Numbered from the stretch's first letter, positions 10,820 through 46,535 are shown. The stretch is DNA of 48,882 nucleotides from Gammaproteobacteria bacterium (GCA_026196545.1 JAPHSZ010000128.1:1-48882), one strand, 5' to 3'. Numbers and translations: made by a program. The notes: a model not told the origin generated them from the sequence alone.

Positions 10820-13800
10820 TTAATTTCTATATCTTCTTCTGAACACGCTAACTACTGGTACTATTCCCAGTAACAATACCAGTCCAATTGTACCGCCTCC
10901 AAGTTTGGTGTCAGGGGCTGTACCCGTAATTGGTTCCTTAGGTGCTGCAGTTCCACCTGGCCCATCATTAAAGTTTGCATAGAAGCCAACAAATGGACCA
11001 TCTATCATAGGTGAACCATTTACACCATCACCATTTACGTCACGAGAAACCAGTGCCCAAGTTGTTGTTGGATCTGGTGCAACACCCGCAGCGCCATCCC
11101 ACAAATCATTGAGTGTTGTTGCTGCGCCATCAGGGTCTTCCCAAACGCCATCAATATCCCATACATTAACCACGTCGATATCAAATGAACCATTGTAATC
11201 AAACAACATATGCACACCCAACTGGCCTTCTGCGACAGTCATAGATATTGTCGTTGCAGTACCTGTCCCTGGGCAACCTGTAGAGTCGATATCATCAGCA
11301 CCAGGATTAGTGGTTTTAGTTGATCCATTGCCAGGATCCGGTGAAGCTGTTTTTGATTCACAGAGTGCATTATCCGCTTCAAACGAATAAGTACCCGGAC
11401 CGAATACACGAACATGATGTGCAAACCAGTTAGCACCGAAGAATAGTTCTGGTAAATCAGACACAATCGTCATATTACTAACCAGATCTGTTTCAGAACT
11501 ATGAGTTGTATTATCCCAGGTAAACACAACATCATTAGTACCACCAAACACTTTTCCATTTGCATCTAGCATGGTGAAGTTACCAAACACAGTCCCCACC
11601 TGGATAGTGGCAGTTGCAGTTCCATCACCACCATTACCATCTGTCGCTGTAAATACAAAGCTATCATTAGCAGACAAGCCAGTTTCAGGCGTATAGGTTA
11701 AGGTACCCGCACCATCATTGGTAATTGAACTAGCTGCGTTGGCAGGCTGAGTCGCACTGACAAACGAGATAGTGTCACCTTCAACATCGGTACAACCAGC
11801 TATCAAGTCAGTTGCAGCAACAATTGTTAGTGGCGTATCCACACCCGTTGCAAGCGTCACATTACTACATACAACTGCATCATTGACCGGATTCACCGTA
11901 ATAGTCATGGTAGCAAGATACGAGTCAGCCACACCATCATTTAGCGTGAAAGTAAATGTATCAGTACCATTAAAATCAGCTGCTGAAGTGTAGCTCAACA
12001 CAGTATTAGTTGCATCGACCGTAACAGTCCCGCCCTGTGTAGTAGCTGCACTGAATGTTGCAAACGTCAAAGCATCACCATCCGGATCAGTTCCTATGGC
12101 AGTACCCAATGTATCAGTATCGGTTACATTAATTGCCAACGTCACATCTTCATCGGCAGTGAAAGCAACGTCGTTAGCTACAGGTGCCAGATTATCGGTG
12201 ATGGTGATATTCACCGTTGCCACCCTGGAAACCGCGCCACCTGCATCAGCGATGGTGTACTGGAAGCTGTCAGTATCGCCAATAACCAATCCTGAAGACG
12301 TATAATCCACAGTACCATCGCCATTATTAACCAAAGTGCCACCATTTGCCGAAGTTGCTGTTAACAGCGTTAAAGTCACTCCTGCTGGTGGAGCACCATC
12401 CTCCGCATCACTGTCATTGTTAATTAAATCAAGCGTTATCAGCGTTGATGGAAGAGCGCCAACATTGTCATCATTTGCAACAGGTGGTGTATAACCTGCG
12501 GACATATCAAAGTTGAAGTTAGCATGGAAACCAACAAATGGACCATCAACCATGGCTACGCCGCGAATACCATTTAAATCACCATCAACCGATGCCCAGT
12601 TCCACTGCTTGGTCGGTGTTTGTGTTAGATCACAGTTAGGACCAGATGTTGCACAGTCATCGCCATTATAGATGGGGTCACCAAAGCTGGTATTGTATTC
12701 CCACAGTACAGCCACATCGATATCAGATGTTGCGCCATAATCAAATAACATATGCGCACCTAACTGACCTTCTGGAACAGTCATTATCAGCGGTGTACCA
12801 CCTCCACAGTTGGTCGTACCTGAAGCAATATCAGCAGCACCACAGTTGGTATCAAAGCTGTATGTTCCTGGTGCAAATATCCGGGCATCATGTGCAGTCC
12901 AGTTAACACCAAAGAATGTTTGTGTCGATGCCAGAGGCGTTGTCATTGCAATATCGGAACATGACTCAGCATTACATATTAATTTCTCATCAAATACACC
13001 GGTAACATTGGTCGCACCACCCACTAAACCACCGGTATTATCCAGCATAGTAAAGTTACCACCAGTGATGATATGAATTGATGGATCATCAGAGACAACG
13101 ACTGTTGCAGAGAAAACTGTATCGCCACCAGCTCCATCAGTTGCGGTAAAGTCAAAGCTATCAGCACCTATAAAACCAGTTACAGGTGTATAGGTTAAGT
13201 TACCTGCACCATCATCAGTCACAACACCATGAGCTGGTTGGCCATAACTGAGCAGTGTTACAGCACCATCAGCATCAGCACAACTACCGACTAGATCTGA
13301 AGTTGTCAATGTAACAGGCATATCTACAGCTGTTGTTGTGTTAACAGCTGGGCAGCTCATAGCATCATCAACAGCCGCTACCGTCACTGTCATAGTGTTG
13401 GTTGCTGAAGATGAAGTATTCGTACCATCAGTCACTGTGTAAGTGAAAGTATCGATACCATTAAAGTCTGCTGCTGGAGTATAAGTCAGCGTATCATTAG
13501 CAAGATTAACTGTGACAGAACCACCTTGTGTTGTAGTTGCATCGAAGGTAGCAAATGTCAGCGCGTCGCCATCAGCATCACTCGCTATTAGAGGGTCAGG
13601 CAACGAAATTGTAGTCAAAGCAACATCTTCGTCAGTAGCCAGGGCCACATCCAACGTTTCAGGCGCGGCCGTAACAGTAATCGTTACCGTTGCTGGAGCT
13701 GCAGAAACCAGCGCATCACTATCAGTCACCGTATAAGTGAATGTATGCACACCCACTGCTGTTGGCGTGTAGTCAATCGTGCCATCTGCAGGCAGCACTG

Positions 13801-15784: not shown

Positions 15785-15980
15785 TTAACCTCGATCTCAT
15801 GAATTTTTCATTACGTCACCCTTCTTTGAATTCAGGTGAAAATGCGTCTTTAATTTACATACACAAAATTTGCTACGAGAATTCTCCCGAAAACAAATCT
15901 TCTAGTTATTTTTCTTATAATAAACGCGTAACCGCTCTTCACGGCGCAGCGTCTAAATTTGTTAGCTACAGAATTAAAGT

Positions 15981-16000
15981 GTTTTTCTTAGTTTTTCTTA
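15981..16000. repeat. Perfect tandem direct repeat (gtttttctta x2) in the AT-rich leader/promoter region of the giant gene
   Basis: 15981-15990 and 15991-16000 are identical 10-mers, about 200 nt upstream of the giant-gene ATG. Confidence 0.5.
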
Positions 16001-16242
16001 ACGGACACATTTTGTATCTTTTTTATATTTATATCAGCATTGGGAATACTGTAAAAACTAACACACTACTTCTTTAAACTTCTAACATAAAACAAGCGGC
16101 ACATCGCCAACTCAATCCACATCATATCTTTTTTGGTGCCAAAAGTTAACTTATTTCTGCAATAAAAAAGTATAAATTACAATAAGTTATATAAGAATAT
16201 ATTAATATAATTATTGATAGTTACAAATACGACTTTTATGAT

Positions 16243-16282
16243 GCGCAAAAAAAAGCAGTCGGTCTTACGACCGACTGCTTTT
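16243..16282 (-). terminator. Strong rho-independent terminator of the 193-aa PEP-CTERM gene
   Basis: The minus strand reads aaaagcagtcggtc-gtaa-gaccgactgctttt followed by further T residues. It has a 14-bp stem, a 4-nt loop and a U-tract, and lies about 55 nt after the stop at 16339. Confidence 0.85.
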
Positions 16283-16338
16283 ATACGGCTTTAACGAACT
16301 ACTGTTCGTATCGAACAAGTCGATATAGCTTTTCTTAG

Positions 16339-16920
16339 TTACGCAGCTTTTTTACGACGCGCCACACCAACTAAACCAAGCAGACCAGAACCGAACAACC
16401 ATACAGCTGCAGGTACAGGTACTGGGTTTGTGTCAAAGCTAAAGTTAGCCTCATAAGTCAGGAAAGGACCGTCGATCATGCCTGAACCAGGAGTGCCGTT
16501 AGGACCTGCAGGGTTACCCGCTACAACGTCAGTAGATGTGTATACACCAGCAGTAACATCCCAAACGTTAACTACGTCGATGTCTGAAGTAGCACCCCAG
16601 TTGAACAGGATGTGACCACCAATCTGACCAGCGCCTACTACAACACCAGTGATTGAACCAGCTTCAACTGTGTCAAATGTGTAAGTACCAGGACCAAAAG
16701 TAGTACCAGAGTGAGCAGTCCAGATTGAACCAAAGAAGGTCTGTGTTGAAGCCACGTCCCATGCGCCACCACCGATGTTGCCAGTTACAACTGTGTCAAC
16801 ATTGATCAATGCACCAGTACCATCGTACATGTCAAATGTAGCAGATGTCATTACAACAGCAGAAGCAGCTGAGCTACCCAGCGCTAAGGCTAAAGATAAA
16901 GCAATTCTTGATTTTTTCAT
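16339..16920 (-). CDS. Small PEP-CTERM protein: signal peptide, one copy of the unassigned domain, and a PEP-CTERM sorting signal
   Basis: 193 aa. SD GGAG upstream of the ATG. Signal peptide (GSSAASA|VV). The domain is closely similar by eye to giant-protein copy 1. The C-terminus PVPVPAAVWLFGSGLLGLVGVARRKKAA is a canonical PEP-CTERM. Own promoter candidate and own terminator, so monocistronic. Confidence 0.9.
   Translation of the reverse strand: MKKSRIALSLALALGSSAASAVVMTSATFDMYDGTGALINVDTVVTGNIGGGAWDVASTQTFFGSIWTAHSGTTFGPGTYTFDTVEAGSITGVVVGAGQIGGHILFNWGATSDIDVVNVWDVTAGVYTSTDVVAGNPAGPNGTPGSGMIDGPFLTYEANFSFDTNPVPVPAAVWLFGSGLLGLVGVARRKKAA
16342..16425 (-). other. Canonical PEP-CTERM exosortase sorting signal
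   Basis: VPVP motif, then a Gly-rich hydrophobic helix WLFGSGLLGLVGVA, then RRKK. Confidence 0.85.
16432..16854 (-). repeat. Unassigned domain, stand-alone copy (193-aa protein aa ~23-163)
   Basis: FDMYDGTGA...FFGSIWTAHSGTTFGPGTYTFDTVEAGS...GQIGGHILFNWGATSDIDVVNVW...MIDGPFLTYEANFSFD. Confidence 0.75.
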
Positions 16921-17007
16921 TCTAAAAATTCTCCAAATATATTTGAGTTGGGCTTTTTCTACCCATTCACCTATTTGCCAACTAATATAAGTCAGCAGCG
17001 TATATAA

Positions 17008-17023
17008 TGCACTTACTATGCCA
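17008..17023 (-). promoter_or_regulatory. Candidate sigma-54 (-24/-12) promoter for the 193-aa PEP-CTERM gene
   Basis: The minus strand reads TGGCATAGTAAGTGCA. GG and GC sit exactly 12 nt apart as in the consensus TGGCAC-N5-TTGCA. It lies about 88 nt upstream of the ATG. A sigma-54-dependent activator (prsR, with a GAFTGA motif) is encoded in the same locus. Confidence 0.45.
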
Positions 17024-17161
17024 ATTTTCTATGTCATTGTTTTATCGAGCCTACTGGGGCATTTATTGGGTAAATAAGTATTTTATGATTTTCTAAATTG
17101 TAAACATTGCCGACACCTGAAATTATTGACCGAAACAAAATCAGTACGAATTTCACATAAA

Positions 17162-17174
17162 TATCAATAGGTTA
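17162..17174. promoter_or_regulatory. IHF-core-like match (WATCAANNNNTTR) upstream of the sigma-54 candidate
   Basis: TATCAATAGGTTA on the plus strand, about 140 nt upstream of the -24 element. Chance matches are likely in DNA this AT-rich. Confidence 0.15.
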
Positions 17175-17239
17175 TAATATTTTTAGTCAATTTGGGCGAA
17201 TTCTTAAGTCTCTATTAAAATCTCCGACAAAATAAACAA

Positions 17240-17254
17240 TTGTGACGTCCACAA
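17240..17254. promoter_or_regulatory. 15-bp inverted repeat TTGTG-N5-CACAA in the divergent intergenic region
   Basis: ttgtgacgtccacaa. It is about 220 nt upstream of the minus-strand sigma-54 candidate. It ends 18 nt before a TATAAT hexamer (17273-17278) that faces the plus-strand sulfotransferase operon. Confidence 0.2.
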
Positions 17255-17392
17255 ATAATTTTGATTCACGTATATAATCACAGCACAAAAAAACGATTCA
17301 ATCCGTTCTATCAAGACTTTTAGCCATAGACAGTTCATTTTTTAACAAAACATTTAGCCAAACTTGCTTTCTGAACACATCCTTATCCAACT

Positions 17393-19282
17393 ATGAACTC
17401 ACTACAATTAACCAAAAAACAACAGAAAATAGCCCACCTGATAGAAAAAGGTAAATTAAAAGAAGCCATCAAGCCCCTGCTCCAGCTATGTAAGTTACAG
17501 CCGGATAATACACAATTGTGGTTAAAACTGGCTTCACTTTATGGCCAGACTAATGATTTTCAGAGCGTTATTAAAGTTTGCCGCAAAATTGAGCCCACAC
17601 AACAACATAATCCTATCCTGCATTCCCTATTAGGCAATGCCTATGCCAGCCTGAACAACATGGAGAAGGCCCATGAATGTTATCAGCAGGCACTGGAGCT
17701 ACAGCCCAACGACCCTGGGCTTTTAAATAATCTTGGTAATGCCCTGTATCTGGATAACAAACTTGATGAAGCTGCAGAGATATTTCAACGTGTAATTACT
17801 CTCAGCCCCAACTATGCTGATGCCCATAATAATCTTGGCAATATATATAAAGCACTTAATGATGATCAGCTTGCTATAAAACACTACCAACAGGCGATAA
17901 AACTGAACCCCCACCTATATCAGACACAGTTAAATTTAGCCCATATGTTTGCGGATCGAATCGGACATCCGGAAATTGCTGAAGATTATTTTAGAAAAGC
18001 ACTGGCGATTGAGCCTGACAATATCGAGGCTTTAAGTGGGGTAAGCAATATGTTGCGTTACCAGGGAAAGCTGGATGAAGCACTGGACATGATCAAACAA
18101 ACCCAGCAAAAGTTTAAAAATGAACCTGGCCCTATTGCTGCCGAGGCCGATATTTATGAGCGTTCAGGAAATTATGATGGTGCCTACAAAATTATTCGAG
18201 ATATGTTGTGCGCTAAAACTGCGCCTCCTATGATTATCAATGTGTTCATGAGGATTTGCCATAGATACGACAGCTGCGATGAAGCGATTAGTGAGGCTGA
18301 AAAACTAACTAATAATACAACTATTAAAATAAGAGATTTGCAGGATACTCATTTTGGGCTTGGCAAACTTTATGACAAACAGAAAAAATATGATGACGCC
18401 TTTGCTCATTACAAAAAAGGCAACGAAGCACTTGATATTTATTTTGAGCCTGAGGTATTTAGAGCTCGCGTAGAAAACCTGATAACAACCTTTAATAAAG
18501 ACAATCTAAGCAAGCTTGCAAAGAGCAGCATTAATACTTCAAAACCCATTTTTATTCTTGGTATGCCGAGATCAGGTACCAGTCTGACCGAGCAGATTCT
18601 GTCCAGCCACCCTGAAGTCGATGGTGCCGGCGAATTGAATGATATAAATGACATTATGGGTAGCCTGTCTAAAACATTACAAAGTCCACTGCCCTACCCA
18701 CAATGCGTGACCTCACTAACTACCGATGCATGTAACCATATCGCCCAGGGTTATCTCAACAGACTCACTAATTTATGCGGAGACAACCGATTTATCACAG
18801 ATAAAATGCCACATAATTTTCTCAATATTGGCCTGATTTCACTATTATTTCCACAGGCCAAAATCATACATTGCGTACGTGATCCAAGAGATATTTGTCT
18901 ATCGATATTTTTTCAAAATTTTGGTTGGCTGCACCCTTATGGAACACGTTTAGACTGGTTAGGATCTTATTTTCAGGAATATGTACGCATTATGAAACAC
19001 TGGGAGCACTCGGTAGATATACCTGTTTACACCGTACGCTATGACGACATGGTCAATGATCAGGAAGCGACGACAAGAAATCTGCTAGCGCACTGCGGGC
19101 TTGAATGGAATGATGCCTGCCTGGACTTCCACAAGTCAGAGCGCGTGGTAGCGACCGCCAGCTATGACCAGGTTCGTCAGAAAATTTACACAAAATCTCA
19201 GGCTCGCTGGAAAAAATATGAAAAGCACATTGCCCCACTGGTTGAACATTTAGGCGATGCCCTTGATGGCTGGCCCAGTTAA
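17393..19282 (+). CDS. TPR-repeat sulfotransferase (N-terminal TPR array plus C-terminal PAPS-dependent sulfotransferase domain)
   Basis: 629 aa, no signal peptide. Multiple 34-aa TPR units (A..Y..AL.L.P). 5'-PSB loop ILGMPRSGTSLTEQIL at about 18551-18590. 3'-PB-like IIHCVRDPRDICLSIFFQ. Confidence 0.8.
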   Translation: MNSLQLTKKQQKIAHLIEKGKLKEAIKPLLQLCKLQPDNTQLWLKLASLYGQTNDFQSVIKVCRKIEPTQQHNPILHSLLGNAYASLNNMEKAHECYQQALELQPNDPGLLNNLGNALYLDNKLDEAAEIFQRVITLSPNYADAHNNLGNIYKALNDDQLAIKHYQQAIKLNPHLYQTQLNLAHMFADRIGHPEIAEDYFRKALAIEPDNIEALSGVSNMLRYQGKLDEALDMIKQTQQKFKNEPGPIAAEADIYERSGNYDGAYKIIRDMLCAKTAPPMIINVFMRICHRYDSCDEAISEAEKLTNNTTIKIRDLQDTHFGLGKLYDKQKKYDDAFAHYKKGNEALDIYFEPEVFRARVENLITTFNKDNLSKLAKSSINTSKPIFILGMPRSGTSLTEQILSSHPEVDGAGELNDINDIMGSLSKTLQSPLPYPQCVTSLTTDACNHIAQGYLNRLTNLCGDNRFITDKMPHNFLNIGLISLLFPQAKIIHCVRDPRDICLSIFFQNFGWLHPYGTRLDWLGSYFQEYVRIMKHWEHSVDIPVYTVRYDDMVNDQEATTRNLLAHCGLEWNDACLDFHKSERVVATASYDQVRQKIYTKSQARWKKYEKHIAPLVEHLGDALDGWPS

Positions 19283-19305
19283 AGCCAGGGTACTGGAATA
19301 TACAA

Positions 19306-21183
19306 ATGCAGGAAAATGTTAGACAAAAAGCTTTAAGACTTTTTCAACAGGGCCATTTCAACAAGGCACGTAGTCTGTACGAAAAAATGTGCAAAAAAAA
19401 TCCGCATGACGCTGAAGCCATGTATATGATTGGATCCATATATGGACAAACAGGCAACTACAAACGCGCTGCTCAGTATTTTAAGAGAACACTGAAACTG
19501 CAACCTGATGCATTTGTAGCTATATGTGGTCTTGCTGCTGCATACAAAAAACTAGGCGAACTCCCAGAAGCAGAAAAAATATTTAAGCAGGCATTAGATG
19601 TACAGCCCGACAATGCTGATTTATTGCTGGAAATAGCGGGTATCTATCTGCAACAAAATAAAATGAACGAAGCAGAGTCATCACTGGCAAAAATACTCTC
19701 AAAAGACCCCAGGAACGCTGAAGCGTTTTATGGACTAGGTGAAGTAGCACATTCACGTCAAAAAATTGATATCGCAGAGAACTATTATAAACAGGCCCTT
19801 GCTATTCAGCCTAAAAACGCTGAAACACACAATCGCCTGGGTCAAATAAAGTATACAAAAGGATTTCGTGACCTTGCTGTTAAATACTATGAAACAGCCA
19901 TCTCAATTCAACCAGACAACTCTGAATTCTGGAGAAATTTAGCGCAATCACAATTGGCGCTGGGGCAGCTCGATAAAGCACATGAATCAATTGATCAGGC
20001 TATAAAAATCAGCCCTAATGATATTGATGCTATTACAACAAAAGCTGGCATATATGAAAAGTCAGGCAATGCAGAAGCTTCCTACAAAACTATAAAACCT
20101 GTTTTAGACAAAAAAATATTAGACACGGGTATTGCTACAACTTATGCATCAATCTGCCATAAACTTGGTCAGTGTAATGAAGCTATTGAATATCTTGATG
20201 CAATTCAAAACAAATTGGACACTTCTAGTCATCTGCTACAATCATTTAATTATACAGTCGGTAAACTATTCGACAAGCTTGGAAACTATGATAGAGCTTT
20301 TAAACATTTTGAAGCAGCGAACAATGCAACTCCAAGTAATTTTTCTGCCATTGAGCATTCAGCTCTGATAGAGAGAATCATGCACGTTTTTAACTGGCAA
20401 TTCATGTCAACGACACCAAGGCCATCATCATTTAACAAAGAAGGTGCCGTATTTATCATTGGTATGCCTAGATCAGGAACATCACTGGTAGAACAAATTC
20501 TTGACAGTCATCCTGACATTTCAGGTGCAGGCGAATTATCAGATATATCAATAATTTCAAATGAAATAGTCAATGTTATAGATCCAGAGACAGGCTTCCC
20601 GGAGTGCTACAAAAAAATAACCAGCGACATACTTGAACAACACGCAAAGAAATATCTCGACAAATTATCCAGCATTTCTTCTGAATCACGTTACGTTACA
20701 GATAAAATGCCACAAAATTTCATATTTCTTGGTCTCATCGCCCTGATGTTCCCCAAAGCAAAAATAATACACTGCGTGCGAAACTCAATTGACACATGCC
20801 TGTCAATTTATTTCCAGCATTTTAATGAAAGCCACAACTATGCGACGCGTCTTGAGGATATTGCATCCTATTACAAGGAATATCGACGCTTAATGGCACA
20901 CTGGAAAATGGTTTTACCATTAACGATCCATGATATAAATTATGAAGAACTGGTAAACTCTCCTAAATCTCACATACATAGTTTGCTTAATTACCTTGAT
21001 CTTGACTGGAGTGATAACTGTCTTAACTTCCATAAATCGTCACGACATGTTCCAACTGCGAGCTATGACCAGGTAACTCGTTCCCTTTACACTAGTTCAC
21101 AGGGACGCTGGAAAAACTATAAAAATCATATTGCACCACTACTGGAATTACTATCATCTTTCAATCAGGAATCAAACATATGA
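19306..21183 (+). CDS. TPR-repeat sulfotransferase, tandem paralog
   Basis: 625 aa with the same architecture. IIGMPRSGTSLVEQIL, IIHCVRNSIDTCLSIYFQ, and C-terminal PTASYDQV...GRWKNYKNHIAPLLELL parallel to the upstream gene. Confidence 0.8.
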   Translation: MQENVRQKALRLFQQGHFNKARSLYEKMCKKNPHDAEAMYMIGSIYGQTGNYKRAAQYFKRTLKLQPDAFVAICGLAAAYKKLGELPEAEKIFKQALDVQPDNADLLLEIAGIYLQQNKMNEAESSLAKILSKDPRNAEAFYGLGEVAHSRQKIDIAENYYKQALAIQPKNAETHNRLGQIKYTKGFRDLAVKYYETAISIQPDNSEFWRNLAQSQLALGQLDKAHESIDQAIKISPNDIDAITTKAGIYEKSGNAEASYKTIKPVLDKKILDTGIATTYASICHKLGQCNEAIEYLDAIQNKLDTSSHLLQSFNYTVGKLFDKLGNYDRAFKHFEAANNATPSNFSAIEHSALIERIMHVFNWQFMSTTPRPSSFNKEGAVFIIGMPRSGTSLVEQILDSHPDISGAGELSDISIISNEIVNVIDPETGFPECYKKITSDILEQHAKKYLDKLSSISSESRYVTDKMPQNFIFLGLIALMFPKAKIIHCVRNSIDTCLSIYFQHFNESHNYATRLEDIASYYKEYRRLMAHWKMVLPLTIHDINYEELVNSPKSHIHSLLNYLDLDWSDNCLNFHKSSRHVPTASYDQVTRSLYTSSQGRWKNYKNHIAPLLELLSSFNQESNI

Positions 21184-21896
21184 GTACCGCTCTGCCCAGG
21201 GTTAATTTTTTTGGGATACCCATATCCACTTATAAATTAAATATTTTTCTCTCAATTTGCGGCATTTATCTACTGGGCATCTTTCTAACATGGTATCTAA
21301 CAGGCATTTTTAAAATACCATTACCTGACGACGTAGCCCTCAGATCATTATCAACAGCTATTCTGCAAACAGTATGTGTAATCATTATTCCTTATTTTTG
21401 GGCAATTAAAAGACTCAAGTTCTCACTACAAGATCTTGGCATTACTACTAAAAAAATTGGCCAATCGACACTTCTTGGCTGCAGCCTGTACTCTTTGGCA
21501 TTAGCCGCATTTATCTATAGCTCATCTGATCCACTAATAAGCAATCATGCAATTAGAACAATGGAGCTGGCTGACGCCTCAACCCTGCTGCTTTCAATGT
21601 CTATCATCGCTGCAGGTACAGATATAGCGACACGTGGTTTTATACTTTTTACACTCGCCAAATTTACTAATTTACCCCTTGCCATTTTTCTACAAAATGC
21701 CGCCTGGTTTTTTGGACACGTTGGCGAAATCAATCTTCTTCAAAATGCTCTTGGCCTCTGGGCAGCGATAGGATTAACACTAATACTTGGAATACTGGGA
21801 GATGTCATTGCATTAAAAACTCGAAATATTGTGGGCCTGGCTATTGCTCATATCCTACTGAATGTCGTATTAACTTTTTATATACGCAGCTTGTAA
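21180..21896 (+). CDS. CPBP (CAAX protease/Abi)-family membrane protein with a non-canonical motif 1
   Basis: 238 aa, about 6-7 TM helices. Motif 2-like WFFGH and motif 3 AHILLN are present. Motif 1 reads TDIATR (21618-21635) where EExxxR is expected. Its ATG overlaps the upstream TGA (ATGA at 21180-21183). Confidence 0.6.
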   Translation: MSTALPRVNFFGIPISTYKLNIFLSICGIYLLGIFLTWYLTGIFKIPLPDDVALRSLSTAILQTVCVIIIPYFWAIKRLKFSLQDLGITTKKIGQSTLLGCSLYSLALAAFIYSSSDPLISNHAIRTMELADASTLLLSMSIIAAGTDIATRGFILFTLAKFTNLPLAIFLQNAAWFFGHVGEINLLQNALGLWAAIGLTLILGILGDVIALKTRNIVGLAIAHILLNVVLTFYIRSL

Positions 21897-21920
21897 TCTT
21901 AAATATTTTCTGACAACCAT

Positions 21921-24191
21921 CTAGCTCATCCTGCTTGCACTCCGACACCACCAGATAATAAGTGCTGAAAATAAAAACATTCCCATTGCAGCTTGCACGA
22001 TAATTCCAAGATTAAATTCAATCAACATATATTGGGAAATAATTACACCTATAACCACACCAACCGACGACATATACCATATCCAGAACCAGACGCTTGG
22101 ATGAAATTTTTGTGTATACGAAGTAGATTGATAATGCACCAAACCCGAACAAAATGAAAACATCACAACTAAAGCAAATATTAATATTTTAGTACTGACA
22201 CCTAGTAAAACCTCAATATCCTGCTCCATACCTAAAAGAACAAAAACGCCTAAAAGCAAAATAACAAGGAAGAGCCATATCTCATTAATACCTTTTGATA
22301 TTATTTTGCCCGCCCTTGTATATGCATAAGGAAAAACAAAAGCAGCTAGCGCAAGTACAATTAAAAAAGAAATAGAAAAATACGAATATCCTAGTGAAGC
22401 TGAAGAAAAAATGGCTGTAGCATAAAGAAGCAAAATAAAAGCAACCACACTGAGAAGAGAATGAAACAATAATATAGATATTACTGGAGAACTTTGTTTT
22501 TCGACTTTATTCAAAGTTCGCATTTTTTGATGCGAGAAAAGCAACCCATATAAACTTACAATGAAAAATAGTGCCGATAAGCCAGCAACAAATGGATGTA
22601 AACCGACAGCCAAATGAAAATAATTTGGCTTAATAATGCTGGATGGCTCAAGATTTATTAGTTTTTTATATTTCCAGCTAGAGGCCCTGGTCAAGTGCAA
22701 AGTCGCATCAGATACTGTAATTCTGTTTAGCTGCTTAAAAAACCTGTAAGGAGGTATATTGTTATTCGCATCGTATATTACCTTCATGATCGGTGCAGAA
22801 TCAATAAGGCGATTTAATGCCTTCAGCTCCTCAGCAGTAAATCTCTGTTTTGAAACTAGTACAAGATAATTATAAGTATCCTTGTACGAAGAATTCTTAT
22901 CAATCTGTAAAACTCGTATATTATTTCTAAAATTTGTTATTTTATCACCAGGATTTTCTGACACCATGCGCCACACATAACTCAGGGCCTTATGCAACAT
23001 GACCTGATCACGAACATTAACAGCCAGCAATCCATTTGTATTAAGTTTATCGTATAGTTTTTTAAAAAACTCAATCGTATAAATAGACTCATGTGAAGCA
23101 GCAGCTCCTATATATGGCTCAGCCACTTGATTAAGTATAGATAGTGAAACAAGATCGTAATTCTCATCAGAATCAATTACTTTCTTTAACCTAGAATTTA
23201 AATCTGAACGGTCACAGTTCATTTCCTTTTTGAAAGAAACACAGTCGTCATAAATGGATGTAGTTTCTGCCCCATACAGTTGTTGAGAAACATCTATCTC
23301 AGGTCCTCTTACGGCAGCAACAGTCAATACTTTTGATGGTTTTTTAAGATCAAAAGGCATCATTACCAACGGATAATGCTTATTCCACCATAAAATGTTT
23401 TCTTGTGTTTTATCGGTAAATGGAACTGAGTTGCTTGCATTATATATTGCCCAGAAATAGTCCTCATTTCGACTTCGTCTTGATGAAACAAGATCAACTC
23501 TGCCACTCGCTCCCCAGATAGTTTTCTCAACAGAACGATAATATCGATCAGGATCATGCAACATGTTTATTGCATGCTTAGTTACTGGATTACCTGATAA
23601 TGACCATTTTGTTATTTGATCGCCTGGGCTACCAGCATCTTCTGCAAACACACCTCCTCCAAGAAACATGAACAGAGCCAATGCTTTTGTGAACACAGAA
23701 ATATTTTTCATCAAAAAAATACTCAGCGTCAATGCTGCAGACGAAAGAACAAAGACCATCCAAATACCATTATTCGCAGTAACAATGAATGATGTTGTCA
23801 TACCTATAACAAAACCAACAAATGAAAGTAACATGCGTATTCTTATTGGTATTGCGTTACTATTATTAGCAACAAATACTGCCAACAATATAACTGGAAA
23901 AATGGTACATAATAAAGCAGTAAAGTAGCTTAGCACGTTCACAAAATTGATAGCATACAATGAATAACTAGATGCAATTAAAAGAAACAATGCAGTCAAT
24001 ATAAACAAATTATAATTTATCTTAACTTTGCTCCTACACATAGCAATACCGATAAGGCATGATGCAATTTCTAATGAAATTGCGGTAACAACAAACTCAT
24101 AGCCAAGATGCAGGTTAATGTAAAAATTCAAACCCAGACAATAAAGTCCAAGCGATATTGAGGCAATTAATACGTTTATCATATACAACAT
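21921..24191 (-). CDS. Polytopic membrane protein (TM block, ~360-aa soluble domain, TM block) with a spermidine-synthase-like central domain
   Basis: 756 aa. About 6 N-terminal and 7 C-terminal hydrophobic helices. The central region has a SpeE-like pattern: KVLTVAAVRGPEID in place of VLIIGGGDGG, and YDLVSLSILN...IYTIEFFKKLYDKLNTNGLLAVNV matching the fDvIivD...lyt.eFy...L.pgGil pattern. Fold assignment rests on motif pattern only. Confidence 0.4.
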   Translation of the reverse strand: MLYMINVLIASISLGLYCLGLNFYINLHLGYEFVVTAISLEIASCLIGIAMCRSKVKINYNLFILTALFLLIASSYSLYAINFVNVLSYFTALLCTIFPVILLAVFVANNSNAIPIRIRMLLSFVGFVIGMTTSFIVTANNGIWMVFVLSSAALTLSIFLMKNISVFTKALALFMFLGGGVFAEDAGSPGDQITKWSLSGNPVTKHAINMLHDPDRYYRSVEKTIWGASGRVDLVSSRRSRNEDYFWAIYNASNSVPFTDKTQENILWWNKHYPLVMMPFDLKKPSKVLTVAAVRGPEIDVSQQLYGAETTSIYDDCVSFKKEMNCDRSDLNSRLKKVIDSDENYDLVSLSILNQVAEPYIGAAASHESIYTIEFFKKLYDKLNTNGLLAVNVRDQVMLHKALSYVWRMVSENPGDKITNFRNNIRVLQIDKNSSYKDTYNYLVLVSKQRFTAEELKALNRLIDSAPIMKVIYDANNNIPPYRFFKQLNRITVSDATLHLTRASSWKYKKLINLEPSSIIKPNYFHLAVGLHPFVAGLSALFFIVSLYGLLFSHQKMRTLNKVEKQSSPVISILLFHSLLSVVAFILLLYATAIFSSASLGYSYFSISFLIVLALAAFVFPYAYTRAGKIISKGINEIWLFLVILLLGVFVLLGMEQDIEVLLGVSTKILIFALVVMFSFCSGLVHYQSTSYTQKFHPSVWFWIWYMSSVGVVIGVIISQYMLIEFNLGIIVQAAMGMFLFSALIIWWCRSASRMS

Positions 24192-24290
24192 ATTTTAGTG
24201 CCTATTTGATCCTGTTTCTTATTCTTCTCAAAGATTGGCCTTTTATTATTCATATACTTCCTGACAAATGTAAGTCGCTAATACTCATAC

Positions 24291-26153
24291 TCATGAGTGA
24301 CTCTTCCAAATCCTTTGATATTCATTTTCTAACGATACCACAAAAGCCCTACCATCAAATAATATAGATTTTTGAAGATAATCACGTTGCCTGTCTCTGT
24401 TATATTTAAGCAGGTCAGTATTTTTAGCCAAGCTGGCTGCCTTATCGATATATTCTTCCTCGCTATTAGTGATCAAGTCTTTCTGATTGACTGCAGTTAG
24501 CAAACTAGCGCCTACTCTTGCAGCATGATAATCACCACATAATGCAACAACTGGCACTCCCATCCATAATGCTTCGCATGTTGTCGTCGTCCCATTATAA
24601 GGAAAGGTATCTAATGCAATATCAATTTTGTCATATAACGACAAATGCTCATTTCGTGTAGGGGTGTGTCCAATTAAATTAATGCGATTACCCTCTATTC
24701 CAAACTGCTGAAATTTCTTAATATATGTTTCTCTGGTTTTTAAATCAGTCAGTGATGGGTTCTTCACAAGCAATTTACTATCTGGCAATCGTTTGAGTAT
24801 TCTGCACCAAACATCTATCACCTTATCGTTTATTTTTGCTAAATTATTAAATGAACCAAAAGTAATAAATCCATTTTGAATAACTGGCGGCTCAGATACA
24901 TCTGGTGAATTATCATCTGGTTTGTATGTCAAAAAACACTCTGGCAATCGACAGAGTTCTTCGCTGTAGAATATATCCTGCCCTTCAGGATCGGCAATAG
25001 CATCAGTAATTCGATACTGGATAGCCTTCATGCCTGTTGTGTTAGGATAACCTAAATATGTAATTTGTACCGGAGCTGGTTTTTTTGCAAATGCCAATAG
25101 TGCATTACTAGCTGTATGCCCTGTAAGATCAACCATAATATCTATCTCATCTGACTTTACAGCGTCAGCCAATTCACTGTCCGTCATAACAGAGGCATCA
25201 CGCCATACATCAAAGAAGCCTTTTAGTCGTGCTGTTACAGCATCTTCCTTTTTTGAAGAATAATAAGCATATGTCTTGAATTTGTTCTTATCGTGATATT
25301 CAATTATAGGTTCAATGAAATAAGCCACTGAATGCTCACGAAAATCTGGTGAATAATAACCTATACGCAAGACTTCCTTATTTTTATCACATGCATGATG
25401 CGCTATATAATTTAAAGGGTTATCAAAAGTATCGCCCCATTTGTTATGCTCATCATACAGCTCCTGCTGACTAACATCTTCCATATAGTTAAGTGTCAGA
25501 AGCAAATTAGAGAATACTCGTGTATTTTTAGGTTGCTTAATAAGGCCAGCACGATATACTTCTATAGATTCTTTGTAGCGCCCCTGTGAGACAAGGACAC
25601 TTCCAAGATTATCATATATGTTCAAGCTCGGATTTAACTGTAGCGCCTTTCGGTAACACGCCTCTGCCCTGCTTAACTCACCCTGTGCCTGATAGACACT
25701 ACCCAGATTTGAATGTGTTTCCGGCTGACCTGGATTTATTCTTAGTGACCTGCCAAATGTCTCTATTGCTTTTTCATGATCATTTAACATCATGTATACA
25801 TGTGCTAAACAATCCAGCTTTTGAGTATTTTCAGAATCCTTTAAAAGTGATTTTTTGAACGCATTAGCGGCTGCCAGGTAGTCACCAGAGTCTCTTAATG
25901 CAATTCCATAGTTATATAAGATGGAGGAGTCGTCTGGTTTTATCTCCAATGATTTTTTAAAGAATTCAGCAGCTTTTACATGTTCATTTCTAAAACCTTC
26001 TACGTACCCCCTATATAACCAAATCTCTGCATCTCGTGGAGCCTTGCGTGCAAGTTGAATTAGTATTTTTTCTGCTGAATCAAAATCATTATTTTCAATA
26101 AATTGCTTTACCTTTTTTAACTTTGACCTGTGAAGAATATTACTTTTTGCCAT
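24291..26153 (-). CDS. TPR-repeat glycosyltransferase, GT41 (O-GlcNAc transferase/SPINDLY-like)
   Basis: 620 aa, no signal peptide. About 6 N-terminal TPR units. C-terminal motifs IGYYSPDFREHSVAYF, ITYLGYPNTTGM and LDTFPYNGTTTTCEALWMGVPVV are characteristic of bacterial OGT-like proteins. Confidence 0.8.
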   Translation of the reverse strand: MAKSNILHRSKLKKVKQFIENNDFDSAEKILIQLARKAPRDAEIWLYRGYVEGFRNEHVKAAEFFKKSLEIKPDDSSILYNYGIALRDSGDYLAAANAFKKSLLKDSENTQKLDCLAHVYMMLNDHEKAIETFGRSLRINPGQPETHSNLGSVYQAQGELSRAEACYRKALQLNPSLNIYDNLGSVLVSQGRYKESIEVYRAGLIKQPKNTRVFSNLLLTLNYMEDVSQQELYDEHNKWGDTFDNPLNYIAHHACDKNKEVLRIGYYSPDFREHSVAYFIEPIIEYHDKNKFKTYAYYSSKKEDAVTARLKGFFDVWRDASVMTDSELADAVKSDEIDIMVDLTGHTASNALLAFAKKPAPVQITYLGYPNTTGMKAIQYRITDAIADPEGQDIFYSEELCRLPECFLTYKPDDNSPDVSEPPVIQNGFITFGSFNNLAKINDKVIDVWCRILKRLPDSKLLVKNPSLTDLKTRETYIKKFQQFGIEGNRINLIGHTPTRNEHLSLYDKIDIALDTFPYNGTTTTCEALWMGVPVVALCGDYHAARVGASLLTAVNQKDLITNSEEEYIDKAASLAKNTDLLKYNRDRQRDYLQKSILFDGRAFVVSLENEYQRIWKSHS

Positions 26154-26185
26154 TATATTTAAAATGAATAGTTACAAAATAAAAA

Positions 26186-28138
26186 CTATCGTTTTCGTAT
26201 AAAAGATCTTGCCAAAATTAACGTAAATGTCAGACATAGAATTCGTAATAAATCAATCGAGCCAGAATCGCTTGACGATTTCGGCTTGATCGGCATACCA
26301 CCTATGACAGAAATTTTCCCATTCACTGTCATATCTGCATCTCCTCGTCCACCATCTCTAATAATAAGTTCGAGCACACTTCCTGTGAATTCAGTTCCTG
26401 AAGATGTTGCAAATACAGCATTACCAATTATTACTGCACCTGTTTCACCATCATAATCAAAATCAAACCAGTGTTGAGTTGGATTATCGGCTGTTCCCCC
26501 ATACATATAGTATGCACTTGGAATTAAACCTGCAGGCAATATGATACCTACTTCGAGTAGCTGCCCCGGAGCAACTCCTTCAACAATGAAGTCAAACACT
26601 CCTGATCCTATTTTCACATCAGCTGGCATTTCAACCATATCTGTTGATTGTAATGCCGTCATATTCCTGAAGTTATAACCACTATCAGTTAAGTATGTTA
26701 CATAGTTTCCGTAAGCATCAATTAATGTTGCAACATTGCTCTGTCTGCTATCTAGAATATCATCGTTATTTCCATCACCATTATTTGGTCCTAAATCTTC
26801 AATCTCGGCCAACACACCATCATCCTCACCGGCAGCAGTTCCTCTTATTTGAATATTAAACAGTGCCTCATCTGGATCATTTGAAACAATAGAAACCGTC
26901 GCGTCCTTAACACCAGGCGTTAATGGTTTAAACTCAATTATTATTCCACATGATTGGCCTGGCTGTATTGTAACAGCACAGGCATCATCACCATCCACAT
27001 TAACAACTGCCGCATCTTGCCCAATTACAGTAATTGATGAAATATCTAAATCCTGCGTACCCTTATTCTCAATCAAAATCACAGGAATTAAGCTACCAGT
27101 GGGTGGAAATATATATGGTAAATCTGCACTTTCAAGGACATCAACATTACCAAAATTAACACTCGAAAATGAAACATTAATATCTGGCTCATTCACCGCT
27201 AGTCCGCCTACTCCATATAATGAAACCTCATAGCTAATGCCAAGGCTAATAATTTCAATATTAAAACTATCTTCATAAACACCTTCTGACTCAGGTGAAA
27301 ACAAAACCATAAATGAACATTGATCACCAGGCTGAATAACAGAGTTAGCACATCCAACATCAACAACATTAAATGGAGGCAACACAGGGTTATTGTCACT
27401 AATACCGCCGATTAGTATTGCATCACCACCTGTGTTTCTTATCGTAATTTCTGGTTGAACACTACTGCCTGATGTCACGATGCCATAATTAATATCAGAG
27501 GTAATAGTAAACAACTCTGTCATTTGTTTTATCTGCACAAGGTTATCAGTCTGAATAGGGTCAGATATATAATCAATTAATGGAAGTTGTCCAAATGCAG
27601 TATCAATATCAGTACGTCCATCTATAGGATGGTTCGCAATTGTGTCAATCGTCTGCATACCATCATTCAATACTTCACCAAACACTGTATACCCAGAATC
27701 AAGTGAAGATGAATTATCTACTAGATTAATAAACCATTGACTTGTTGCACTATCTGGATCTCCTAGTGTTGCCATAGCAATAGTGCCTCTTAAATTTGAT
27801 AACCCAAGCTCATTGGAAATAGCAGGCTGTTCAGGTATGGCTGAAAAACTAGTTAAGAAATCAGAATTGTTTGGATCATAATTATAGCCGCCTCCCTGAA
27901 TAACAAAACCAGGTACGCTTCGATGTATAAAACTATTATCATAACTACCAGAAAGCATATAGCTCATATAATTGCTAACAGTAACTGGCTTGTCTGTATC
28001 GTATAATCTTAGATCAACGGTATCTTCATCTACTCCTTGCTGTATATTTAAACGTACAACCGTATCTGCATGAGATAGATTTACCATCAGCATTGGTAAT
28101 ATCAAAAAAATTAAACGGATAATTGAAGTTCTAAACAT
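26186..28138 (-). CDS. Secreted multidomain cyclophilin-type peptidyl-prolyl isomerase with a C-terminal sorting-type tail
   Basis: 650 aa. Signal peptide (VNLSHA|D). Cyclophilin motifs FIHRSVPGFVIQGGG, RGTIAMATLGDPDSATSQWFINL and YTVFGEV (aa ~26-195). Two ~100-aa ASH/HYDIN-like beta modules resembling choice-of-anchor D (NTGGDAILIGGIS...PGDQCSF...; NKGTQDLDISSITV...PGQSCGI...SNDPDE). A further domain carries DGGRGDADMTVNG. The tail is SGS-TM-RKR. Confidence 0.8.
   Translation of the reverse strand: MFRTSIIRLIFLILPMLMVNLSHADTVVRLNIQQGVDEDTVDLRLYDTDKPVTVSNYMSYMLSGSYDNSFIHRSVPGFVIQGGGYNYDPNNSDFLTSFSAIPEQPAISNELGLSNLRGTIAMATLGDPDSATSQWFINLVDNSSSLDSGYTVFGEVLNDGMQTIDTIANHPIDGRTDIDTAFGQLPLIDYISDPIQTDNLVQIKQMTELFTITSDINYGIVTSGSSVQPEITIRNTGGDAILIGGISDNNPVLPPFNVVDVGCANSVIQPGDQCSFMVLFSPESEGVYEDSFNIEIISLGISYEVSLYGVGGLAVNEPDINVSFSSVNFGNVDVLESADLPYIFPPTGSLIPVILIENKGTQDLDISSITVIGQDAAVVNVDGDDACAVTIQPGQSCGIIIEFKPLTPGVKDATVSIVSNDPDEALFNIQIRGTAAGEDDGVLAEIEDLGPNNGDGNNDDILDSRQSNVATLIDAYGNYVTYLTDSGYNFRNMTALQSTDMVEMPADVKIGSGVFDFIVEGVAPGQLLEVGIILPAGLIPSAYYMYGGTADNPTQHWFDFDYDGETGAVIIGNAVFATSSGTEFTGSVLELIIRDGGRGDADMTVNGKISVIGGMPIKPKSSSDSGSIDLLRILCLTFTLILARSFIRKR
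26189..26278 (-). other. C-terminal tripartite sorting-type tail of the cyclophilin protein (Ser/Gly motif, TM, basic cluster)
   Basis: SSSDSGSIDLLRILCLTFTLILARSFIRKR. No PEP motif. The class cannot be assigned without HMMs. Confidence 0.4.
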
Positions 28139-28219
28139 AACTAAACTCGATATGGTAATAAATAAAAAATTAATTTAAAGATGACAAGCGTAATTCAGGC
28201 AGCATTCAAAACTTAATTA

Positions 28220-29575
28220 TTAAACTGTAATATTTAGCTTTTTAATTAAATCGTAGAGTGTTGGTCGACTAACACCTAGCAATTCAGCAGCAGGAGCTAT
28301 TTTTCCATTTACATGTGATATGGCTCGAACAATCGCCTGGCGCTCAACTTTTTCCCTAATAAGCCTTAAGTCATAATTCATTCTTTCTGCAGGTGCAGTA
28401 TCTAATTCAAGATCTGTTGCCGTTATATATTTTTCATCTGACATAATTACAGCACGTTTTATTTTGTTCTGAAGCTCACGTACATTTCCAGGCCATGCGT
28501 ATGATTCCATTGACGAAAGCGCATCTTTATTAAAACCCTTCAACTTACTGCCATGCTGCTCATTAAATTCATTAAAAAAATACTTGGCCAGCAAAATTAT
28601 ATCGCCTTCTCGGTCTCTTAGTGGTGGAATCTCTACTGGAATTTCACTAATTCTATAAAACAAATCCTCCCTAAATTCACCTTTCTCAATTTTTTCTCTT
28701 AAGTTCTGGTGTGTTGCACAAACGATGCGAACATTAACAGCTATTGGTTTATGACTACCAATACGTTCAATCACCCTTTCCTGCAAGAACCTTAATAGTT
28801 TTGCTTGCAAGGAAATTGGCAAGTCACCCATTTCATCAAGAAATAGCGTACCTCCATCCGCATATTCAATTTTTCCTATTGTCTGTTTTACAGCACCGGT
28901 AAAAGCACCTTTTTCATAACCAAACAATTCACTTTCCAACAAGTTATCTGGTATGGCGGCGCAATTTATTGCAACAAACTCCCCCTTTTTGTTCCTTCCT
29001 TTAACATGCAGTCCACGAGCACAAATTTCTTTTCCTGTTCCACTTTCACCAAGTAACAAAACAGTCGCATCTGATGGAGCAACCTTTTCAATGGCTTTGC
29101 ATACACTTTGCATCTGTGAGCTACAGGCTATAACCCCATTAAAGTGCTCATGATTTGATAAGTCATGCAGCTTCTTATTTTCAAGTTCTAGGTCATGAAG
29201 CCTAAATGCACGTTCTACAATAAGACTCATAATTTCTGGCTGAAAAGGCTTAGCATAAAAGTCATAAGCGCCAAACGCTATTGCTTGCATGGCATTTTCT
29301 TTTTCATCTTGGCCAGTTACTACTATAACCTTTGTATTGGGTTCAATTTCCAGGATACCTTTTAACGTTGCAATACCTTCAGATGTATTATCTATCTCTG
29401 GCGGCAAACCAAGATCCAGAGTAACCACAGCAGGTTTATATTGGCGCACCTGTTCAAGAGCACTGTCACGGTCATCAGCCAATAAAATGTCATAATTTTC
29501 AAAACACCACCTAATTTGACTTTGCAAACCAGGATCATCCTCTACTATCAGCAGTTTTGTTCTTTCTATTGACAT
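28220..29575 (-). CDS. prsR: PEP-CTERM-box response regulator transcription factor (NtrC-type sigma-54 activator)
   Basis: 451 aa. REC domain (VVTLDLGLPP), AAA+ sigma-54 interaction domain (GESGTGKE, GAFTGA) and a Fis-type HTH (LLGVSRPTLYDLIKKL). Lies directly downstream of the prsK-like kinase in an XrtA locus. Confidence 0.85.
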   Translation of the reverse strand: MSIERTKLLIVEDDPGLQSQIRWCFENYDILLADDRDSALEQVRQYKPAVVTLDLGLPPEIDNTSEGIATLKGILEIEPNTKVIVVTGQDEKENAMQAIAFGAYDFYAKPFQPEIMSLIVERAFRLHDLELENKKLHDLSNHEHFNGVIACSSQMQSVCKAIEKVAPSDATVLLLGESGTGKEICARGLHVKGRNKKGEFVAINCAAIPDNLLESELFGYEKGAFTGAVKQTIGKIEYADGGTLFLDEMGDLPISLQAKLLRFLQERVIERIGSHKPIAVNVRIVCATHQNLREKIEKGEFREDLFYRISEIPVEIPPLRDREGDIILLAKYFFNEFNEQHGSKLKGFNKDALSSMESYAWPGNVRELQNKIKRAVIMSDEKYITATDLELDTAPAERMNYDLRLIREKVERQAIVRAISHVNGKIAPAAELLGVSRPTLYDLIKKLNITV

Positions 29576-29630
29576 TTTTTTCTACCAAAAAACCAATTCA
29601 TTGTCGGAATATTTTACACCTAAAACACAA

Positions 29631-31700: not shown

Positions 31701-31791
31701 CTTAGACCTTTAGCGCCATATAGATAAAGTAGACATCGCGTAATAGTAAATAAATGCCTAAGATTATCCTTTATCCCAAGCCACGACAAAT

Positions 31792-34059: not shown

Positions 34060-34193
34060 GTTAATTAACTCTTATATTGGCATATATTAGTAATAGTGAT
34101 GAATAGATGCATATAAGTAATATATGTATTTATTTCTGACTACCTAAGAATAATAATGATTATCTTACGGTACTAACATAAGATAATAATGTA

Positions 34194-35927: not shown

Positions 35928-36025
35928 AGTATTTTTACTCTACAAACTGAATCATCATAAATCAAACATAAATATTTAAAACCTATGCAATCCCTAGAAA
36001 AAGAATTCAAGCATTATTAAAAATA

Positions 36026-36790: not shown

Positions 36791-36814
36791 TAGACCAAAC
36801 CCAAATAAGTATAT

Positions 36815-38566: not shown

Positions 38567-38617
38567 CTACTTAATGTTATATATTTTACTAAAAATGTGT
38601 TTTATACAAAAGAAAAA

Positions 38618-39835: not shown

Positions 39836-39885
39836 ATTTTTCACTCTCTCCTTACTTACAACGTTTATAGTTCTTACCAATGGTT

Positions 39886-40443: not shown

Positions 40444-40660
40444 TTAAAACAATAAGTTAATTAAAACCATTCTTTCCTTATTAAAATTTTTCATTTAGCA
40501 AATACGCCTATAATCTGGACAAAAACACCATTAAACCTCCATACACACTAAGCAATTTGTGAGTATATCAGACATCATAATGAATGGGGGTATTGCAATA
40601 TAAATACTTCAGAAAGCGATTTTTTACATATTAGGAATATCATTATTTTATAATATACCA

Positions 40661-42304: not shown

Positions 42305-42355
42305 TAAAAATCCTTTATACTCATCGCAACATTATTCATTAAAAAATCCTGTTTT

Positions 42356-43933: not shown

Positions 43934-44016
43934 TTTATTATAAATTTAGATTTAAATGGATATATTTTTCATAATCCAGTAACATTCAAACTATAGCAAC
44001 AAATTCAAATTGTCTA

Positions 44017-45225: not shown

Positions 45226-45310
45226 TAACCGCTAAGAATAGGGTTTAATATTACCTACTCATCTCTCCTGACTAAAACTTTAATATTTTATACAATAAGA
45301 AACGTACAGA

Positions 45311-46525: not shown

Positions 46526-46535
46526 TCGTACGCTT

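Follow-up and report, generated by a model that had tools for sequence, protein, structure and literature searches.

The GlyGly-CTERM signal of the rhombosortase (RrtA) system, known for example from VesB of Vibrio cholerae, consists of three parts, a Gly/Ser motif that is often SGGS, then a helix, then a basic cluster, and is carried by unrelated secreted proteins (PMC3237569, PMC6219818). Haft and Varghese (2011; PMC3237569) reported that the enzyme adjoins its target in genomes with a single target and is otherwise far from it, that the same protein families are found with either GlyGly-CTERM or PEP-CTERM, and that the GlyGly-CTERM hidden Markov model (HMM) misses some true tails. The VesB tail has been studied as a fusion in Vibrio cholerae with and without rssP/rrtA (PMC13393428). 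PEP-CTERM proteins and exosortases also belong to exopolysaccharide (EPS) loci with PrsK-PrsR and the floc protein PepA in Aquincola and Zoogloea, and pepA is RpoN-dependent in Aquincola (PMC9850573). Here I analyse JAPHSZ010000128.1, a complete 48.9-kb NCBI contig (48,882 nucleotides; hereafter the window) that comes from a gammaproteobacterial draft genome or metagenome-assembled genome (MAG) and carries a large cluster for EPS and protein sorting. Uncultured Thiotrichaceae MAGs are the closest relatives found. The cluster encodes three tail-bearing secreted proteins, here called P1, P2 and P3, and one domain recurs in it on two types of C-terminal anchor. This pattern has been known in principle since Haft and Varghese (2011; PMC3237569), and the window is a new instance of such a 'choice of anchor'.

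The locus resembles the GlyGly-CTERM/RrtA system in placing a three-part signal on unrelated secreted proteins and in having families that also occur with PEP-CTERM, and in two of the related loci (L003 and L020; L-numbers denote related loci from a genome scan, look-ups and a metagenome scan) the targets adjoin a rhombosortase. It differs in that the window tails fall under the cutoff of the curated model TIGR03501, in the DTxLGxG signature of P2 relatives, often with a spacer ending in Trp, and in its setting, which is an exosortase EPS locus and not that of enzymes linked to type II secretion (T2SS). With the PepA floc systems it shares a small sigma-54-driven tailed protein, a TPR protein, EPS export and an exosortase-EpsI fusion, but P1 is well short of the PepA cutoff, long paralogues on a second anchor have been added, and PrsK and PrsR, which are named for XrtA systems, here accompany XrtD. 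The likeness to the VPLPA-CTERM/XrtD subclass (TIGR03370, TIGR04152) is direct, as the P1 tail and the window exosortase both pass. In common with the systems for MYXO-CTERM and for JDVT-CTERM, which have CPBP myxosortases (10.1101/2023.06.07.544157; PMC11980579), the locus has a CPBP-fold gene and P2 and P3 have relatives elsewhere with Cys-type tails; however, the window tails lack the invariant Cys, and the window CPBP protein lacks the Glu residues of EExxxR. Finally, the NCBIfam choice-of-anchor families D (NF012200) and U (NF041766) are both present in P3 above cutoff, the U family showing GlyGly-like, Cys-type and anchorless ends. The P1-type domain behaves alike, with four kinds of C-terminus, yet matches no curated choice-of-anchor model.

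What the locus offers is a concrete case, from uncultured Thiotrichaceae-like gammaproteobacteria, of one matrix-associated domain family on two anchors in a single EPS/floc locus, with a small, putatively exosortase-sorted form beside giant surface-adhesin forms on the second anchor. If confirmed, the case would hint at the way in which flocs join cells to slime matrix. It also exposes tails missed by the curated GlyGly-CTERM model, which is useful for annotation, and it leaves the established picture of C-terminal sorting systems unchanged.

Three tailed proteins and their anchors

The open reading frames of P1, P2 and P3 are all present on the minus strand, and each protein has a signal-peptide-like N-terminal start as read from the sequence. 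Each tail has a hydrophobic stretch of 15 residues, with a mean Kyte-Doolittle value of 1.9 to 2.8, and then 3-4 Arg/Lys; a hydropathy check of the window revealed no further secreted protein with such a hydrophobic and basic tail. The tails stand above chance, as their architecture and motifs are kept in orthologues and in dozens of relatives. A preliminary description of this DNA had placed the three genes, their tails and the common domain where I find them, and the tails read identically.

P1 (16339..16920), a PepA-like secreted protein of 193 aa, contains the common all-beta domain once. Its C-terminus reads NPVPVPAAVWLFGSGLLGLVGVARRKKAA, and the tail VPVPAAVWLFGSGLLGLVGVARRKKAA (16342..16422, minus strand) passes the VPLPA-CTERM model TIGR03370 with 31.2 bits (cutoff 25.35). 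The general PEP-CTERM model TIGR02595 gives 14.8 bits with the whole protein and 20.1 bits with the isolated tail (cutoff 16), and PF07589 stays below its cutoff (19.7 against 20.7 bits). What had been described as a textbook PEP-CTERM is therefore of the VPLPA type, the whole protein lying under both general thresholds. The name XrtA given to the exosortase also has to change, since this enzyme (42356..43933, minus strand; Pfam Exosortase_EpsH and DUF3485, that is, with a fused EpsI domain) passes the XrtD model TIGR04152 with 574.9 bits (cutoff 400) and fails the XrtA model (177 bits, cutoff 208). It is the sole exosortase in the window. Because the P1 tail passes VPLPA-CTERM and the enzyme passes XrtD, which NCBIfam labels 'VPLPA-CTERM-specific', the two form a matched pair of a named subclass. 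A literature search on XrtD and VPLPA-CTERM turned up unrelated papers only. Against the flocculation protein PepA model NF033554 (floc_PepA), P1 aligns over residues 60-191 with 38.9 bits where the equivalog cutoff is 80, and by this comparison P1 is classed as PepA-like only and not as an equivalog.

P2 (10820..15784) is an adhesin-like protein of 1654 aa, and its residues 34-190 are 69% identical to residues 24-169 of P1 (E 3e-55). Two more diverged copies of the domain follow at residues 898-1093 and 1446-1606, so that P2 holds three P1-type copies with about ten Big_9/cadherin-like repeats between them, and it matches the NCBIfam tandem-95 repeat with 306 bits. An AlphaFold model of the P1 domain (four window copies) is all-beta, with a pLDDT of 57 that is too poor for fold searching. 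The earlier claim that the same domain sits on two anchor types holds, P1 having the VPLPA-type tail and P2 a GlyGly-like one. Trimmed to 28 residues, the P2 tail KLGGGTIGLVLLLGIVPVVSVFRRRYRN (10823..10906, minus strand) aligns full-length with the GlyGly-CTERM model TIGR03501 (model positions 1-22), with a sub-threshold 12.9 bits (cutoff 15.5); the GG_III-CTERM ('GGIII-like') model gives 14.0 bits (cutoff 22). PEP-CTERM-family models match neither P2 nor P3, even at E = 10, and neither protein has a VPxP/PEP motif. The closest relatives of P2 keep the signature TGTAPDT(K/T)(L/I)G(G/S/D)(G/S), matching TGTAPDTKLGGG of P2, and an in-register alignment of 17 tails places G-[GSD]-[GS] immediately N-terminal of the helix. 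The P2 tail had been called GlyGly-CTERM-like and devoid of a PEP motif, and both points are borne out. The comparison of the tails with the two kinds of HMM, which had been proposed as a check, came out divided: P2 and P3 are indeed not PEP-CTERM proteins, but neither passes as GlyGly-CTERM.

P3 (26186..28138) is a 650-aa secreted cyclophilin (PF00160, 1e-30) with choice-of-anchor D (NF012200, 92.8 bits, cutoff 45) and choice-of-anchor U (NF041766, 37.7 bits, cutoff 32) domains. Its tail SDSGSIDLLRILCLTFTLILARSFIRKR (26189..26272, minus strand) has a Ser/Gly motif and belongs to the GlyGly-like class; by sequence and hydropathy, the tails of both P2 and P3 show the GlyGly three-part architecture of Gly/Ser motif, helix and basic cluster, together with an N-terminal signal peptide. 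An exhaustive profile search for the P3 family found 4,064 relatives, and among the 150 top representatives listed the tails of 146 were classified. At least 58 of these 146 have an S/G-G-S motif right before the helix and basic residues, as in DSGSGSLSYFYLIFILLIK and SDSSGSMTWYFTLLLAILLSLPR, and about 25 more have, by eye, a Cys-type tail (GGGGCS...AGAWWLLL...R). As a consensus, the family has S-(S/G)-G-S followed by helix and Arg, and six close homologues have DGGG, DSGG or GGSGS in the same arrangement; one of their isolated tails scores 16.9 bits against TIGR03501. Other isolated S/G-G-S tails from the family score 17.2, 15.4, 14.8 and 8.1 bits against this model, and two give no match. 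Isolated Cys-type tails of the family score 25.7, 18.3, 13.2 and 11.6 bits against MYXO-CTERM (cutoff 20), and the carriers of those that partly score as MYXO-CTERM are not Myxococcota. On this family comparison, the SDSGS-IDLL... of P3 is best classed as an ordinary, slightly degenerate GlyGly-like member. The preliminary description had counted three different tails; since the P3 tail is ordinary in the S-G-S / G-G-G class that dominates its own family, and changes together with the P2-type tail, there are two tail classes and not three.

Tail variants among relatives and the link to rhombosortase

An alignment of the common domain was scanned against a genome collection (21 loci) and a metagenome collection (79 loci), and four kinds of C-terminus, A to D, were found on relatives with the P1-type domain. 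Class A comprises short proteins ending (A/P)VPVPAA(V/A)WLFGSGL...ARR(K/R)K; the class-A relatives listed for the genome scan and the look-ups have a tail nearly identical to that of P1, and so do about 25 from the metagenome scan. Long multidomain proteins whose tail has a Gly motif make up class B, and long proteins whose tail is of the Cys type make up class C; in class D the ends are dockerin-like and have no helix. The type-D end is a dockerin/EF-hand-like repeat (DADLNGDGIVNA.DL..FK...PGPSGL), seen at L040:6647-9184, L093:8675-12013, L104:8678-12013, L109:6350-10849 and L114:227-4750. Cys-type tails take the form G-C-S/T, a spacer of about 10-13 residues, (D/E)-W-W/L, helix and Arg/Lys; they occur on long P1-domain proteins at L018:8561-10753, L021:9887-11305, L023:8207-11581, L063:8861-10735, L077:3584-6460 and about 15 more metagenome loci, and on many P3-family proteins too. 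The P1-domain Cys tails from L018, L021 and L023 gave no match to MYXO-CTERM, and JDVT-CTERM was ruled out as the identity of the Cys-type tails, all tested examples scoring 7-13 bits against a cutoff of 27. Two long-read metagenome contigs, L002 (ERZ25039514 contig_88910) and L036, are full of frameshifts, with genes in 2-4 pieces, and the odd C-terminus of P0009 (…FLVDAERVRLFLKKFSEH) may be an assembly artefact.

Tails also differ within one protein lineage. The protein of L075 (DPSFGGGC-TLAA...GDW-LLVGLALAGLALFRRR) has a Cys tail and its Thiohalobacter counterpart (DPSFGGG-AAAGLW-SLFGLVGLALFRRR) a Gly tail, and this comparison of L075 with L003 suggests direct interconversion of Cys-type and GlyGly-type anchors within one lineage. 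P3-like cyclophilin proteins adjoin class-B genes in several relatives, and wherever both C-termini are complete the classes of the P2-like and P3-like tails agree: Gly/Gly in the window, L004, L014, L049 and L053, Cys/Cys in L077, and no discordant locus. The VPVPAA tail of the short protein stays constant across these six loci. Two substrates that share one lineage-specific sorting enzyme other than the exosortase would be expected to co-change in this way, although the loci are too few for significance.

The connection to rhombosortase comes from two of the related loci. The homologous locus of Thiohalobacter thiocyanaticus (L003) has four VPVPAA proteins and a 442-aa protein (L003:17190-18518) that carries two copies of the domain and ends FGGGAAAGLWSLFGLVGLALFRRRNH; this tail passes TIGR03501 with 17.5 bits when isolated and gives 12.6 bits in the whole protein, which puts the 12.9 bits of the isolated P2 tail on a par with the whole-protein score of this homologue. 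The gene of this protein is followed by that of a bona fide rhombosortase, which passes TIGR03902 with 148.8 bits (cutoff 84). In L020, the homologue at 6022-7383 has an isolated tail that passes with 19.1 bits, and it too adjoins a rhombosortase, detected only with a self-built HMM (177.6 bits). Between L003:17190-19183 and L020:6022-8004 the GlyGly-tailed proteins are 69% identical, and the adjoining rhombosortases only 38%. A third locus, L013, has an unrelated rhombosortase convergent with a protein that ends in a classic GGGGGGGSFSLYSLLVLGLFSMGTLLARRK.

I looked for the enzyme of the window's own lineage among other rhombosortase matches. The low-GC matches P0204 and P0201 were ruled out by their unrelated contexts, and two further rhombosortases on long contigs lie in housekeeping or T2SS contexts. 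Amino-acid composition did not discriminate in linking CPBP and rhombosortase matches to one assembly.

Which enzymes may sort the three proteins

My best reading, to which I assign a probability of roughly 0.55, is that two sorting systems operate on these proteins: P1 would be the substrate of XrtD, and P2 and P3 those of a rhombosortase encoded elsewhere. P1, small, driven by sigma-54 and PepA-like, would be exported by Sec, cleaved by XrtD, whose gene belongs to the same EPS cluster at a distance of 25 kb, and passed on to the matrix; here the match of tail and enzyme is observed, and cleavage is what the family leads one to expect. P2, in which the P1 domain is reused three times, and P3 would carry a diverged GlyGly-CTERM-type signal (Gly/Ser motif before the helix, then Arg/Lys), to be cut by the rhombosortase after the small-residue motif. 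Both would probably remain at the surface of the cell, retained by a new lipid C-terminus as VesB is in Vibrio cholerae, and one domain family would then serve matrix and cell surface alike. With two or more candidate targets and without a rhomboid gene, the window is as the adjacency rule of PMC3237569 predicts, and the finding that no protease gene recurs beside class-B genes fits this rule too. The earlier proposal of a second sorter outside the window accordingly survives as the best reading, with the L003 and L020 adjacencies making a rhombosortase the most likely identity; what it had overlooked is that the window itself holds a CPBP protease-like gene, although the evidence is against this gene as a sorter.

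Several observations weigh against the two-system reading. The P2 tail is below the TIGR03501 cutoff and the whole P2 protein gives no match, while the P3 tail matches neither TIGR03501 nor any other curated tail model and has Asp and Arg inside its helix. No rhombosortase was found by tblastn in the 48.9-kb window, nor in the flanks of any window-type class-B locus, the 79 metagenome loci included, and adjacency to rhombosortase was observed only in the lineage with the FGGG tail. The co-variation of P2 and P3 tails comes from six loci, with a Fisher p of about 0.17. Homology and context are thus what carries the two-system reading: neither tail reaches the curated cutoff, and of this genome the rhombosortase search covered the window only.

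Class-B tails from the closest relatives that were tested, L014, L016 and L017, and from L022 also fail to match TIGR03501 at all, and this counts at the same time in favour of an alternative, namely that the tails of P2 and P3 form a separate uncurated signal class, DTxLG[GSD][GS] on the adhesin and S-G-S on the cyclophilin, handled by an enzyme other than a canonical rhombosortase. In those four relatives the tails contain an additional spacer of about 8-10 residues with Trp at its end, foreign to canonical GlyGly-CTERM and shared by Cys-type tails, and no rhombosortase was seen near any of them. Nevertheless, the tail of P2 itself has no spacer and aligns over the full length of the GlyGly-CTERM model, P3-family tails fall on both sides of its cutoff, homologues with passing tails adjoin rhombosortases, and no other enzyme recurs in the neighbourhood (no protease gene recurs beside class-B genes), so that I regard a separate class as unlikely. 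I give equally low odds to plain C-terminal anchors, left unprocessed in the inner membrane and facing the periplasm. A membrane-tethered periplasmic cyclophilin is plausible, the helix of P3 is short as well as interrupted by Asp and Arg, and P2 and P3 fail all curated sorting-signal models. However, plain anchors would not explain why a small-residue motif before the helix is kept in two unrelated protein families whose tail types change together, or why in homologues an end of the PEP-CTERM, Cys or dockerin-like type stands in place of the tail, a behaviour typical of sorting signals. A 1654-aa cadherin/Ig-repeat adhesin with an outer-membrane barrel is, moreover, unlikely to work in the periplasm.

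The other candidates are enzymes encoded in the window. The CPBP/Rce1-like protein (21180..21896, plus strand; PF02517, 29.2 bits, cutoff 22.4) and the 756-aa polytopic membrane protein that is its constant partner (21921..24191, minus strand; no Pfam or NCBIfam match) could act as a second, myxosortase-like sorter of P2 and P3, as an intramembrane protease-fold is conserved inside the locus at 50-78% identity, has a weak similarity to the archaeomyxosortase MrtA, and the closest P3 orthologues retain a Cys within the helix. Yet the MrtA score of 27 bits is far under the cutoff of 200, and at least 95% of 115 homologues have TDxxTR as motif 1, which in its EExxxR form carries the active-site Glu of CPBP proteases (10.1101/2023.06.07.544157). 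In the known signals sorted by CPBP enzymes, a Cys in the signature motif is invariant and required (10.1101/2023.06.07.544157; PMC11980579), whereas the P2 tail has no Cys and that of P3 has one only within the helix. The CPBP gene accompanies class-A genes in L003, L004, L005/6 and L037-L039; in L005/6 and L037-L039 these are VPVPAA genes with no Gly-tail protein in view, and L037-L039, which came from CPBP look-ups and are closer to the window's lineage, contain neither a rhomboid gene nor a class-B gene. Conversely, the CPBP gene is not among the recurrent class-B neighbours and is absent from the retrieved flanks of most class-B loci. Because the active-site Glu is replaced, P2 and P3 lack the signature Cys, and the gene tracks the PEP-CTERM-type protein, the CPBP protein is an unlikely sorter of P2 and P3, and I hold this alternative to be quite improbable. 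A variant would make the Gly/Ser tails a distinct uncurated class handled by the Glu-less CPBP-like protein paired with the membrane protein of about 770 aa, possibly with a FadL-like barrel as outer-membrane acceptor. This is a similarly long shot, and if true it would be a new kind of sorting machinery within exosortase EPS loci. Least probable of all, to the point of being hardly credible, is that XrtD (in the earlier proposal, XrtA) has relaxed specificity and processes all three tails. It is the sole sorting enzyme visible in the window, and the genes of P1, P2 and P3 share one EPS/PrsKR cluster with it; on the other side, P2 and P3 have neither a VPxP/PEP motif nor a PEP-CTERM-family match, and the second anchor flips between Gly and Cys while VPVPAA remains fixed. 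The near invariance of this motif on class-A relatives argues for its strict recognition.

Regulation and gene neighbourhood

A sigma-54-type -24/-12 promoter, TGGCATAGTAAGTGCA (17008..17023, minus strand), precedes the P1 start codon by 103 nt, in agreement with the RpoN dependence of pepA (PMC9850573). Equivalent sites are found 97-134 nt upstream of P1-type genes in L003, L004, L014, L020 and L022, and not upstream of most class-B genes. No convincing sigma-54 promoter was seen upstream of P2 or P3, P2 having only a -24 half-site, and the window-wide count of sigma-54 matches is not above chance (40 against 31 expected). Just past P1 there is a strong terminator, a hairpin with a T-run read from the sequence (16247..16279, minus strand). 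The P3 gene begins 81 nt past prsR and forms an operon-like row with the genes for the 756-aa protein and a TPR and GT41-like glycosyltransferase (24291..26153, minus strand; Glyco_transf_41 in homologues), the latter 32 nt downstream of P3. The sigma-54 two-component regulators PrsR (28220..29575; TIGR02915, 691.7 bits, cutoff 502.6) and PrsK (29631..31700; TIGR02916, 735 bits, cutoff 300), both on the minus strand, span 28220..34059 together with a PrsT-like TPR protein.

Directly downstream of P2 is a FadL/Toluene_X-like outer-membrane barrel (9330..10721, minus strand), with weak FadL, FilD and PorV matches. A homologue of this barrel adjoins the class-B gene in 17 of the 18 loci examined, and it may be the outer-membrane partner of the anchored adhesin.

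Between P1 and the CPBP gene lie two TPR and sulfotransferase genes (17393..19282 and 19306..21183, plus strand; Sulfotransfer_1/3 in syntenic homologues). Homologues of the 756-aa protein adjoin the CPBP gene in L003, L004, L005/6 and L018, and the CPBP gene always occurs with a membrane protein of about 770 aa, TPR-GT41 and/or TPR-sulfotransferase genes, and a VPVPAA-type protein. The whole cassette (17393..26153), with its two TPR-sulfotransferases, CPBP-like protein, polytopic protein of about 770 aa and TPR-GT41, is conserved with VPVPAA PepA-like genes in Thiohalobacter, in Thiobacillus-like bacteria and in several uncultured lineages. It may be a module that modifies or processes the exosortase substrate. 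L037 has an additional 849-aa gene, which matches Spermine_synth and faintly MFS_1 and stands between the CPBP gene and that of a protein of about 780 aa.

Also in the cluster are a gene for PAPS synthesis (34194..35927) and genes for EPS chain length, kinase and export functions. The housekeeping part of the window (SecDF, CyoE, Mfd and P2; 1..16000) has a GC content of about 0.46, against about 0.33-0.39 across the EPS/sorting cluster (16000..48882), which may be a compositional island. GC skew is strongly negative throughout.

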